Assembly (NCBI GenBank): GCA_964016885.1
Contig: OZ024742.1
Span: 50,840,001-50,904,000, forward strand
Source: Eledone cirrhosa
Taxonomy: Eukaryota
Direction: 5' to 3'
DNA length: 64,000 nt
In this document: positions 546-50,372 of the stretch, one piece after another
Layout: every line of letters begins with the position of its first letter
How positions within the stretch are numbered: position 1 is the first letter of the stretch
Made by a program: the position numbers and the translations under genes
Notes under the pieces: model-generated
What the model saw: the letters and a program-made list of their open reading frames with translations, nothing else
What the model was told of the DNA's origin: nothing
Database searches by the model: none

Positions 546-1752
546 CACCCAAAAATTAAATGAAGGGTGTAATGTCGGAGAGACATGCATGTATCCACAG
601 AAGAATATGCTCCAACATTCCAATGAATAGATCCGACCATTTTATATCAACTAGAAATTGATTGACATATATATATATATAAAATAAACATATGAAACAA
701 TCACAGGGAATAATTTGTAAAAGTGTGCAAGCACACATAGCTAGGTAGGTAAATAATTAAAGTTTAACTAGAACTTCAAAAATAGATACCTTATAAATTA
801 ATTAATCTTCCTTGTATATATTTCATTAAAGAAATATATTTCAGCACTAATCGATCGGTAAACCACAGTAGCCAAATACCAGAATTTCAACAACGGAGAA
901 TATCTAACTATCTGTGTTTACACAGCAAATCAAAATATGCGAATAACTAGCACCAGGTGTTGCCTTTTTTTAAAATACACACGTCGTACCAGCTTAATCA
1001 AGGAAGATTAATCAATTAATAAGGTATCTATTTTTGAAGTTCTAGTTAAACTTTAATTAGTTACCTACCTAGCTATATGTGCTTGCACACTTTTACAAAT
1101 TATTCCCTGTGATTGTTTTCATATGTTTATTTTATATATATATATATATATATATATATATATATATATATATATATATATATATATATATCATTCAATT
1201 TCTAGTTGATATAAAATGCTCGGATCTATTCATTGGAATCTTGGAGCATATACTACTGTGGAAATGACACATGTCTCTCCGACATCACACCCTTGATTTA
1301 ATTTTGGGTACACGGCCCCTTAATTGTACAGCTAACTCAGTTGAAAAGACTCGGCTGCTATTTCTAGTTGTCGATAACCCTATTCACGCCACTGGGATGA
1401 AGCTGGAACGATGTGTATATTTTTAAAAAATGCAACACGCGCTGGTAGTCATTCGCAGATTTGGATTTGCTTTGTAAACGCATATAGTTAGATCTTCTCC
1501 GCTTGTTGAAAATCCGTATTTGGTTACTGTGGTTTACCGATCGGTTAATGGTGAAATATATTTCTTTAATGAAATATATACAAGGAATATTAATCAATTT
1601 ATAATGTACCTATTTTTGAAGTTCTAGTTAAACTTTAATTAGTTACCTACATATCTATGTATACTTGCACATTTTACAAATTATTCCCTGATATTGTTTC
1701 ATATGTCTACTTTATAAATATATATATATGTCGATCAATTTCTAGTTGATAC
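546..1752. mobile_element. Non-coding HHR element family A (retrozyme-like, ~540-nt unit), head-to-head fold-back
   Basis: 546-998 is inverted relative to 999-1752. The right arm is about 1.3 tandem units (TCAATTTCTAGTTGAT at ~1195 and ~1735). Flanked by TA tracts; no credible ORF. Confidence 0.75.
1497..1587 (+). ncRNA. Type I hammerhead ribozyme, U3-A8 core variant
   Basis: Stem I CTTG/CAAG, core TTGAAAA (1506-1512), stem II CCGT/ATGG, GAAA (1553-1556), stem III TATATTTC/GAAATATA, UA cleavage site 1579-1580. A mutated copy lies at 806-899 (-). Confidence 0.7.
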
Positions 1753-1934
1753 ATATATATATATATATATATATATATATATATATATATATATATATGT
1801 GTGTGTGTGTGTGTGTGTGTGTGTGTGTGTGTATGTGTGTGTGTGTGTGTGTGTGTGTGTGTGTGTGTGTGTGTGTGTGTGTGAATATATATATTTGAGA
1901 ATTTATGTAGGTATATATATATATATATATATAT

Positions 1935-2695
1935 ATTTCAAAGTTAAACAACGTTCAATGAATACATCAAAGAATGACTTTTACAATAGTTGGAAACACT
2001 CAACAGAGTGAGGGTATAATTCATTATTTATTTTCTCTCTCGTGTTTCGTAAATCCTTTAAATTTGTTTTCATAAAATTTGAATTTAAAAAATTAAACAT
2101 AATTATAATATTAATACAAATACCTATCGACTTTTAAAACCTAAAATATTATTCATTACTCTGAAATAACTTAGATTAAATATTTTGAATATTAACGGCC
2201 AACTATGTTAATATGGGTATATGGAAAAGTGTATATAAACCTGAACATAAATTACACCCCTTTGTCTCTCTCCTCAATCATCTTTCATTTGTTTTTTCGA
2301 GTCACCTATTAAATATATTATCACATCAGCTGTTTCTTCCTCTATGCTTTCCTGTCCCTCCTCTTTCTTCAGTAGTTTAAAAAAAACATTTTTAACTGTT
2401 ATATTGATGCCATGTATTTTTTTTGCTGTATTACTCGCACCCTCTCTATTGTTTGTATTATGTTATCTCATGATCTCAATATTAGGGTATAAATATTGAG
2501 TTTTCTCATATGTTAATCTCTACCATGACTGAATCTTAACCATCTACTATGTCAGAGTATGTTATGCGTCATCCTATATTATATGATGAGGACGTACTGT
2601 TAAACTTAACTCAGGACCTCTGAAATATGTATAATAAAATATAATTGATCACAAGAATATCTATGTTGTTAATATTTTGAATTAAAATATATTTA
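1935..2695 (+). mobile_element. Diverged PLE 3'UTR/pLTR fragment related to the 6.5-15 kb family, with a short inverted tip at 1935-2010
   Basis: Similar to 14200-14660. Decayed HHR ATGATGAGGACGTACTG...CCTCTGAAATATGTATAATAAAAT at 2575-2641. Confidence 0.7.
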
Positions 2696-4587
2696 TATAT
2701 ATATATATATATATATATATATATATATATATATATATATATATATATATATATATATATATATATATATATATATATATATATATATATATATAAGTAC
2801 AGAAGTAACCGATAAGGTTGTTTGTTACGTATACATCTCGCTTCCGCTGAGTTTACTTCCACATGCTTCAGCCACAAACTTACAGATTCATAGCGAAAGG
2901 CCTTCAAATATTTTTCAGGTACACCTCGTATATATATTCGATATTCAACATATACATGTGTATAAAGCTGTACTGGAGCCCCAATACTATTTCCGTTTAC
3001 TCGAGCAGGCTACCGTTCCATTGGCAATTAAGACTCAAGATCTCATATACATGACAGAAAAATCATTATGATCGTAGCTTATTTTTATAACAGCAGATCC
3101 CTAATGGATACGTAATTTTGACAACCACCAAAATGCCAGACACAACGCTGTCGGTTAATTCCTCTTGGTCTTGCTGTGAAAAGAATATGTGACTTTGGAC
3201 ACGACTGTAAAAATTCAAAGTGAAAGGCTCTCAGATATTTGCATAAACATCTCCACTATTAGTCGATATACAACACGTACTCACACATAGGCACACACGC
3301 ACACACACGCACACACACACACACATATATATATTTTTATATATATATATATATGGTGGCTGCCAACTCGTTTTCGAGTACGGCCACTACTTTATATCCA
3401 TGTAGGAGAACCTCTACCGATGCGCTGAACGAGTGTGACATTTTAGTCCAGCTACCGACTTGAAAACTCTGGTACAAACACTACACTTGTGACAATTATT
3501 GACACATAGTGCTGGGCCCATGGTACCATGTGACGACAAGTGCAGAGAGATCTCCAGATGTAAATCAATGCCTGTGCTGTGAAGCTTTTATAGTGAGCAA
3601 AGGCACTGCATAAAGCCAGTCCCACTCTCTTAACCAAGATGATATTTACCAAAAAGAAGAACAAGTCAACATCATTGGATACCATCATGGTTGCAGGTGT
3701 TATATCAGAGTTTTCCTTCTCCGAGAATTCTGCCATATATATATATATGACAAGAGCTTACGTTTGTGCACGTGTGAATGCTTATGAATATCTACAAAAT
3801 CCTTACGTACATCAATTATGTACACATGCATATATATAGAGAGAGAACTACATGTATCTGCATTCCCATTGATAAACATCAAAAGACTATGTCAAGCCGG
3901 TATTACATGTAGAAATAGAAAAAGGAATCTGCAAAAAAATTAGTCTTACCGAACAGTGAGAGATTAACTAAGGTTATTCGTGATAGAATGTGTTAGGTAT
4001 ATTTTATGGAAAAAGCAATTGCGATGACGCCAGGTATCTTGACGAGTAGAAACATAACGAAATAAACATAAAAATGGATACCTGCGTAGATGCATAGACA
4101 GATTATATAGATTACTAGACTGCTACAGGAATTGATATTCAGTTTTCTAAGTAACTCTACCTTTAGACTCAATTTTGTACAAACAATGAAAGCATTCTTA
4201 CTGATTTTTAGCAGTTAAGCGGGAAGATCATAATCTAGAGTTATTTTTATTTCTGTTGCAGTTGTCATGCTTGATGTACAAACGACCTAAACTCGATATC
4301 ATATTTCACCTGGATGGTTAACGTCACCCAAGTTGCATATGCCTTCCATATTCATATATTATAAACTACTTGCTCTGCTATCTTTCTTATCACATGTGAG
4401 GATGATTTAGGAGGTTTAATGCTATATATAAGCATGGATAGTTGCAGCGTTATATCTAAACTTACAAACTAAATGTATGCAAAATTATTTTTATAGTTTT
4501 GGGATCAATTACTAGTATAATTACAATTATGAACATGATCAAACCCTTCTTGGGTGAATTATATATTTAAAAAAAATTACGTTAATA

Positions 4588-4769
4588 ATAATTGTTTCTA
4601 CTTTTGGAACAAGGCCAGCAGTTAATCCAGTGTATTACTGGTATTTTATTTTATTGACCCCGTAAGGATGAAAGGCAAAGTTAACCTCGGTGGGATTTGA
4701 ACTCAGTCATAAAGGGCCGTAACTTGTGCTGCAAAAGCATGGCGTCCGATCCTCTGCCGATACTGCCAA
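4588..4769 (-). mobile_element. tRNA-derived SINE (octopus-type)
   Basis: Reverse strand has an A box (TGGCAGTATCGG), a B box (GAGTTCAAATCC), the central GCCTTTCATCCTTACGGGGTCAATAAAAT..TACCAG motif and the tail CCTTGT..AAAAGTAGAAACAATTATT. About 10 copies in the window. Confidence 0.85.
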
Positions 4770-49265: not shown

Positions 49266-49339
49266 AATATATATATATATATATATATATATATATATAT
49301 ATATATATATATATATATATATATATATATATATATATA

Positions 49340-49645
49340 TATGTGTGAAGACAACATAGAATATTCGAAAATATTCTGTATGTTTATAATAAACATTTTG
49401 AAGACCCAATCGCTATAGAATAGAATACGTCACGTATTACAATTTGAGATTCTCGATAAAAGTAAGGGAAGTAATCTACGCGTTTCATTCTTGTTAGAAA
49501 TCTTCAGGATTACATATCCAATACTTTTATCGAGAACGACACAGCTAGAGACTTATAGAATACTTAGCTGTGTACAGGAACATTATAAACATTATTATAA
49601 ACATACAGAATATTTTCGAATATTCTATGTTGTCTTCACATATAT
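49340..49645. repeat. Short fold-back with ~55-bp arms in (TA)n
   Basis: GTGAAGACAACATAGAATATTCGAAAATATTCTGTATGTTTATAATAA and its reverse complement at ~49592-49640. Confidence 0.75.
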
Positions 49646-50141
49646 ATCGCTATTTCAGAGCATTAAATCCCCCCCAAAAAAAAAATATATATATATATAT
49701 ATATATATATATATATATATATATACATATATACATATATATATATACATATATACATATATATATATACATATATACATATATATATATACATATATAC
49801 ATATATATATATACATATATATATATATATATATACATATATATATATATATATATACATATATATATATACATATATACATATATATATATATATATAT
49901 ATATATATATACATGTATATATATATATATATATACATATATATATATATATATATATATATATATATATATTTTATATATATATACATATATATATATA
50001 TATATATACATATATATTTATACATATATATATATATATATATATATATATATATATATATATATATATATATATATATATTCTAGACCGCGGCGTAAAA
50101 TTCCCGATATATATATATATATATATATATATATGTAGTTA

Positions 50142-50372
50142 AATAAGGACGATTAGTTAGTCCTTCGTTACGTTTATTAGTGACGCGCGTTTCGCCACTG
50201 ACCAACTCAAGGTTCGATCTGTATCGATCTGGCATGACTCTGTAATCTGGTCAATGGCGAAACGCGCGTCGCCAATAAACGTAATGAAGGACTAACCAAT
50301 CGTCCTTGTTATCTTATTTAACAATAATGCACTCTGTATAGCTCTACACCGCGACACTGAAGTGAACCTAAT
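50142..50372. repeat. Micro fold-back of a PLE-type 3' end
   Basis: 50143-50203 is inverted at 50248-50310. HHR 3' half GGC-GAAA-CGCGCG-TC-GCC-AATAAA. Confidence 0.75.

Follow-up and report, generated by a model that had tools for sequence, protein, structure and literature searches.

A 64,000-nt stretch of the Eledone cirrhosa genome (contig OZ024742.1, positions 50,840,001 to 50,904,000 of the forward strand, assembly GCA_964016885.1), here called the window, carries insertions of Penelope-like elements (PLEs). These have two fixed 3′ positions, a near-strict pairing of the two kinds of end, variable 5′ stops with a common limit, arms from the same source and short overlaps or patches at their centres. 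At all 14 loci listed in a first-pass annotation of the window, two outward element ends are joined head to head, mostly flanked by TA runs. The outer termini are 3′ ends, since the open reading frames (ORFs) of the long loci point outwards. By self-alignment, 13 of the 14 loci have shared inverted arms, from 37 bp (at 30018) to 3.3 kb (6553–14753) long and 80–98% identical; the locus at 1935–2695 has none, and the single architecture claimed for the 14 holds for their outward ends but not there for the arms. All inverted matches in the window end at element termini and none extends into the flanks. The arms are diverged and therefore do not represent assembly read-through. No target-site duplication is visible in the four loci inspected, where it would be hidden within the TA runs.

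Four coding families, A (38047), B (6553), C (19644) and D (42358), are Hydra-like PLEs by the motifs they carry. Their long copies have reverse-transcriptase motifs, then DKT in place of DKG (seven of eight loci scanned) and a CxCx5C linker downstream of YRDD, with a Y[IV]G motif beyond the linker in A, B and D. Motif reading of three families gives an N-terminal RWK in D and RWR in A and B. Pfam searches with seven ORF pieces gave weak GIY-YIG matches for two (one at E 2e-4) and no match to a reverse transcriptase (RT) domain. Hammerhead cores and stems are legible by eye in families B, F and G and three small loci, with a variant core in A; none was seen by eye in family E or the 48501 locus, and Rfam gave no hammerhead match in the window, just sub-threshold microRNA-like matches to hairpins and TA runs. 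The target is (TA)n in the sampled copies and most window loci. DKT, the linker, RWK/RWR, a C-terminal GIY-YIG-type region, the target and hammerhead-like motifs are shared with the Hydra clade (PMC8557442). The units, about 3.1 kb in D (locus L286) and more than 4 kb in B, exceed the 'generally <3 kb' of that clade, a soft feature. No PLE ORF contiguous with the small families E, F, G and H was found in 80 genome loci, so their PLE origin is read from shape and hammerhead-like motifs (for E, from shape alone). Family E (549–1752, 18853–19488, loci L430–L448) is non-coding, with a unit of about 560–580 nt, no clear hammerhead and two recurring ends in its genome copies; it looks like a non-autonomous PLE passenger.

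Candidate sites of these families number at least hundreds to thousands in the 3.0-Gb genome. Two sets of copies were drawn from the best 40 or so matches to window copies. Tail-only queries returned 40, 41, 40 and 41 full matches, with runs past locus ends fetched; once 5 duplicates, 5 copies from the window itself and a 44-nt side match had been set aside, 152 tail-anchored copies were classed by hand from BLAST maps, and 117 have an inverted partner, 33 are single and 2 are other inversions. Shared-region queries (30 of 40 matches each examined, window copies and one duplicate removed) gave 45 untailed ends: 21 with a tailed partner, 0 with an untailed partner, 16 single and 8 unresolved (21/37 resolved ends two-ended). 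The combined estimate of the two-ended share of insertions is 0.49–0.51. The first-pass statement that most insertions are fold-backs is thus right for tail-anchored copies but not overall, and a form taken by about half of insertions is not the default mode it was said to be. Single-armed counts may be inflated by later decay. The same pattern appears in first samples taken with 244–263-nt queries, which are excluded from all counts; they were treated as possibly biased because the limit of the 5′ stops lies near the query length. That limit persisted with tail-only queries.

Paired ends and arm extents

The two 3′ positions of a family, an outer one that includes a tail and an inner, untailed one, are 86–91 (A), 94–98 (B), 87–97 (C) and 111–115 nt (D) apart, which bears out the earlier observation that the two arms differ in their 3′ positions and adds that these are fixed per family. 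When a tailed end has a resolved partner, that partner stops at the fixed untailed site of the family in 108 of 112 cases; the partner of an untailed end is tailed in 21 of 21. One tailed and one untailed end are thus present in 129 of 133 resolved pairs (Fisher p = 9e-21). The same pairing is found by inspection in families F and G. RCTC lies 5–13 nt past 12 of 15 distinct start sites, and a later GAGY is found in 6 of 15 as compared with a background of 0.7% (17 segments were run; one mis-registered and one duplicate were dropped). The start sites show a TA-like match of 2–6 nt to the target.

The extent of the arms was compared in 106 insertions, leaving out two complex ones. In 48 the untailed arm extends 5′ of the tailed one by more than 10 nt, in 29 the tailed arm is the longer, and in 29 the arms are equal. 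In the 48, between 11 and about 3,000 nt of 5′ sequence on the untailed arm are missing from the tailed arm; neither arm can be a copy of the other, which counts against simple snap-back. In 10 of 21 untailed-anchored cases the tailed arm does not extend past the inner site, so no palindrome is present. Of the 10 stops of family A tailed arms (28 arms examined) that lie at 60–130 nt, 7 are at 82–95 (p = 8e-4, for an interval chosen post hoc). An edge effect as the cause of this pile-up was rejected for family A using a 60-nt query.

Many arms share a 5′ limit. In family C 22 of 45 stops lie at 244–262 nt from the tailed end and in family B 19 of 40 lie at 250–270 nt, with one each in the next 60 nt; the limit takes 5 of 16 stops in D and is not significant in A. 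A TATA box is located 25–30 nt upstream of the limit in B and D (about 26 nt in D), with TCACT in B, while A and C have no clear TATA. The limit is likely the 5′ end of the RNA, at the transcription start of the pseudo-long terminal repeat (pLTR), to judge from these motifs; RNA starts would then fall about 264 (B), 257 (C) and 293 nt (D) from the tailed end. A central palindrome fails to explain it, because often one arm alone reaches it (8 cases in C and 11 in B, 19 altogether). In family A, a second cluster of 5′ stops, in both arms, is found 147–160 nt from the tailed end (window 41273–41286), at the hammerhead-like core and off the predicted cut site.

Arm-to-arm divergence has a median of 2.9%, as compared with 4.8% to other copies, and is the lower of the two in 33 of 42 insertions (Wilcoxon p = 4e-5; 45 were given and 3 were too short). 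Judged from BLAST ends and without a null model, 57 contiguous centres comprise 23 with an overlap of at least 3 bases, 20 that are near blunt and 14 with extra bases, some of which come from nearby element sequence. Family D centres at L284, L289, L290 and L333 show several template switches in the form of short inverted or displaced element pieces. Raw reads on the end of family A, the family for which they were examined, support the joints: 13 of the 15 listed (of 66) switch strand and most recur in all three runs, which may come from a relative. Hundreds of raw reads have a uniform foreign sequence ahead of the tail start (window 41345–41346), which may derive from one locus. One such foreign sequence resembles what we take to be a Helitron 5′ end.

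Proposed twin priming and its alternatives

We consider it probable that these insertions arise by twin priming, in which a single RNA is copied from two fixed sites and read-through is frequent. The endonuclease would cut both strands of (TA)n. An RCTC-led stem 5–13 nt downstream would set each start site and load one copy of the protein, and each of the sites, 86–115 nt apart, would be primed by one strand of the cut target, the same RNA being copied twice. The inner site would prime a cDNA that runs toward the 5′ end of the RNA; the outer site would prime behind it. An outer cDNA that stops at or before the inner site would leave an L1-like inversion, and one that pushes the first cDNA aside and copies that stretch again would leave a palindrome. 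When primed in the 5′ pLTR, both cDNAs would run off at the pLTR transcription start. The centre would be closed by microhomology-type end joining. Failure or loss of one primer would give a single-armed copy, about half of insertions.

Two RNAs from one source locus, one per protomer of an asymmetric dimer and each with a different start site, would account for the pairing, the same-source arms and the non-nested arms, and would produce the longer tailed arms (29/106) without strand displacement; a dimer has been predicted (PMC11167929). We think this unlikely, as it does not explain why tailed arms end at the inner site (7/10 in family A) or before it (10/21), unless bound protein blocks the enzyme, and it requires an asymmetry that is itself unexplained.

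The published proposal is self-priming, in which a single cDNA or an antisense RNA, folded on itself at a short palindrome, is copied once more (PMC3846280); the endonuclease would then have to trim one tail. Equal arms in 29 of 106 insertions (several centred on 4–8-nt palindromes), variants shared between arms and the nesting of the untailed arm within the tailed arm in 29 more would all follow. The extra 5′ sequence on the untailed arm in 48 of 106 and the lack of any shared arm in 10 of 21 would not, nor would the single arms that reach the 5′ limit in 19 B and C cases, and the start sites match RT initiation in vitro (PMC11167929) rather than trimming. The non-nested arms exclude snap-back as the general route, and as the explanation at large it is improbable, but a minority of insertions may still be so made.

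The first-pass annotation had both ends of the target prime independently on the 3′ region of the RNA. The two outward ends, the four tailed/tailed cases and the in vitro extension of both strands with no strand bias in start site (PMC11167929) agree with this. The pairing does not: unless the genome samples are strongly biased, 4/112 and 21/21 (p = 9e-21), with untailed/untailed pairs at 0/21, are incompatible with independence, and show that the two ends are coupled. Many short arms, moreover, end at the likely 5′ end of the RNA, so priming is often within the 5′ pLTR. Independence is accordingly highly improbable. The rest of that proposal, RNA-templated priming from both ends of the break with central joining, fits better than a DNA fold-back, given that flanks are not duplicated, arms are non-nested in 48 of 106 and the arms are of the same source, and the idea of two-ended priming is broadly right. 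The contrast it drew with L1 twin priming is not upheld, since inversions that lack any duplication make up 10 of the 21 two-ended insertions found from untailed ends; the remainder do duplicate.

An inverted duplication of the DNA once inserted, a double insertion into one TA run or an assembly artefact would be hard to credit and is contradicted at nearly all loci: TA runs do draw repeat insertions (14770–15326 lies tail to tail with 6553–14753) and a few tailed/tailed loci with arms near 88–91% may be double hits, but flanks are not duplicated, arms differ by 2–12%, end types are paired in a fixed way and joints recur in raw reads of three runs.

Several observations count against twin priming of one RNA. 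The pairing has its exceptions (4/112 partners of tailed ends are tailed, and a few cases in families F and G, including 46459–46950, depart from it), and the genome samples are best matches and not random draws. RCTC stems are individually weak (z −2.0 to +1.5; whole start-site regions have z above −1) and family D has no RCTC where one would be expected. Family A alone has a clear pile-up at the inner site, with 2–3 cases each in B and C and 0/24 in D. In 12 of the 24 family D insertions the tailed arm is the longer, which would require the following cDNA to overtake the first. The partner arm is at least as close as the nearest other copy in only 15 of 42 insertions, and the likeness of the arms could also come from conversion between them. 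Many equal-length centres lie on 4–8-nt palindromes, as snap-back also predicts. In vitro, the two strands did not differ in start site (PMC11167929). Genomic products do not distinguish the use of one RNA molecule from that of two.

With rather more reserve than for twin priming itself, we suggest that it is programmed: two RCTC-led stems might load two enzymes on one Hydra-clade PLE RNA, each cut strand priming at its own site, as a normal route of integration and not an accident as in L1. A single cause would then underlie the fixed fold-back points, the tail on one side and the inverted repeat.

Further features of the window

The features of the window are collected in the table below. 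Four of the first-pass boundaries miss a tail or fall short; three are corrected to 19644–24766, 45412–45750 and 48135–48489, and 50142–50373 lacks the full length of its family's tail. One fold-back, 18853–19488, had been overlooked. At least six copies in the window are single-armed (14770–15326, 6323–6506, 32530–32589, 45760–45858, 47517–47618 and 35870–37595). An inner direct pLTR (partial tandem) is present in 6553–14753 and 48501–49264.

Table. Positions and structure of PLE insertions and associated motifs in the window
Position	Strand	Feature	Basis
549..1752	left arm minus, right arm plus	Family E, non-coding ~560–580-nt tandem unit, two-ended	arms 88% over 358, 80% over 310
1936..2693		Family B relative, inverted ~75-nt tail piece and untailed arm, non-palindromic inversion	self-alignment
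6553..14753		Family B (Hydra-like PLE by motifs): untailed inverted arm 6553–10634, inner pLTR and tail 10634–10920, ORF with internal deletion, tailed 3′ end	89.7% over 3268
10921..10938	+	RCTC...GAGC stem, 7 nt past tailed start site, family B	start-site motif scan
14456..14491	+	TATA box and TCACT initiator-like motif, family B pLTR; arms end here (likely RNA 5′ end)	motif kept in 7/7 copies displayed
14546..14610	+	Hammerhead-like motif, family B; core and stem I by eye	sequence; no Rfam hammerhead match
14770..15326	-	Single-armed tailed family B copy (counter-example), 5′ end directly on TA run	genome locus L182
18853..19488		Family E two-ended insertion	93.8% over 96
19644..24766		Family C PLE: left arm tailed (tail 19644–19730); right arm untailed and internally deleted; junction within RT, near 22735	92–95%
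29167..29363		Family F, small hammerhead-bearing fold-back, right-hand tail	self-alignment
29430..29822		Family A stub; left arm tailed, right arm untailed and extending further 5′	90.3% over 144
30018..30169		Family F stub, shared arm 37 nt	self-alignment
38047..41433		Family A PLE: untailed left arm ~130 nt longer 5′ward, tailed right arm (tail 41348–41433)	97.9% over 1580
41350..41353	+	RCTC motif directly past untailed start site, family A	motif scan
42358..45397		Family D PLE: left arm short (698 nt) and tailed; right arm long and untailed, coding for RT and GIY-YIG at 43310–44641	98% over 588
45412..45750		Small hammerhead-type fold-back; tail 45683–45750 beyond first-pass boundary	self-alignment
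46459..46950		Family G fold-back, both arms with the long end (exception), flanked by two unrelated SINE copies	no TA run at ends
48135..48489		Small hammerhead-type fold-back; tail 48409–48489 beyond first-pass boundary	self-alignment
48501..49264		52-nt untailed inverted arm and partial tandem of two tailed repeats	self-alignment
50142..50373		Small hammerhead-type fold-back, right end short of family tail	self-alignment

The insertion at 46459–46950 was considered as a DNA fold-back that includes the flanking short interspersed nuclear elements (SINEs) and this was rejected; the two are 88.4% alike, no more than other copies. The SINE-like family to which such copies belong is about 200 nt long and 83–93% alike, is found at 4587, 18314, 18513, 25652, 28049, 37636, 45968, 46262 and 47019, and often sits at TA-rich PLE ends. 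Old, diverged internal duplications are present in the 3′ non-coding regions of three unrelated families (7385–8490, 20326–20697 and 38205–38459). The minus strand of 32710–33885 holds a partial tandem of two 413-nt direct repeats (93.7%) with a hammerhead-like core, a very long stem II and no inverted arm. A 5′-truncated single PLE of another clade is located at 35870–37595, with a weak GIY-YIG match, a CxxC linker and its 5′ end at a TA run. Decayed fragments of at least two kinds of AP-endonuclease long interspersed nuclear elements occupy 51900–63600, and a compact hammerhead-like core (383–407) lies near the start of the window.

Known systems and significance

The architecture is itself ordinary, and any novelty claimed for it falls away, since the inverted 5′-truncated copy, the one-sided tail and the TA target are published (PMC8557442, PMC3846280). 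Craig et al. 2021 (PMC8557442, Fig. 2) describe an inverted 5′-truncated copy beside the 5′ end, a 30–40-bp tail that is often one-ended and (TA)n targets; for Pen2a_Av of Adineta vaga (PMC3846280) head-to-head is the commonest arrangement, and the TATA box of the pLTR lies 20 bp ahead of a TCACT initiator. Our insertions share with these an inverted 5′-truncated copy that meets a direct copy or partial tandem head to head, the one-ended tail, the TATA and TCACT initiator of the pLTR, a simple-repeat target and an asparagine-rich linker (N-rich inserts in Adineta PLEs), which is located between RT and endonuclease at 9075–9542, 11731–12339 and 21466–22086. They differ in their tails, 60–170 nt here and 30–40 there. 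The accessible text of the two papers gives no counts of end pairing or arm nesting, which are counted here.

The closest biochemical system is PAc (Poseidon_Ac; Frangieh et al. 2024, PMC11167929). Both strands are cut and extended by the purified protein, for which a dimer is predicted, and copying begins at two internal sites that delimit the tail. The present families share with it a tail between two fixed RT start sites near the 5′ region of the RNA, an AT-rich target and, on our reading, the cutting and extension of both strands. PAc, however, belongs to another clade and shows no strand bias, its two sites were not tied to inverted insertions in the accessible text, and it is said to start without homology, whereas the start sites here have the short TA-like match. 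In PAc and Pen2a the tail is inside the ORF, whereas in families A, B and D it precedes the ATG of the first long ORF, by 44–56 nt (L338, L286, window 10914–11100). This placement could change given decay or an intron. With L1 twin priming, as summarised in PMC2912911, the insertions would share the use of one RNA by two target ends, one priming at an outer site and one at an inner, as well as joining by short complementarity and an inverted 5′ piece. Here, in contrast, the inner site is fixed and close (86–115 nt), the outer cDNA would often pass it to give a palindrome, and two-ended insertions are about half of the total. We found no published twin-priming account of PLEs in a search that reached few subscription papers, no supplements (Figs S1–S2 of PMC11167929 may bear on strand-to-site pairing) and none of the PLE papers of 2005–2006; the accessible part of a retrozyme preprint (10.64898/2026.07.22.740005) has nothing on inverted insertions.

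Tandem and inverted PLE insertions and the one-sided tail are named as unresolved in origin in PMC8557442, and the later steps of integration are left open in PMC11167929. The present counts make this mechanism testable in the existing assay, through strand-to-site pairing, one as opposed to two RNAs and the role of the RCTC stem. Twin priming would also account for many of the palindromes common in large animal genomes, which may be mistaken for DNA transposons, microRNA precursors or assembly errors.

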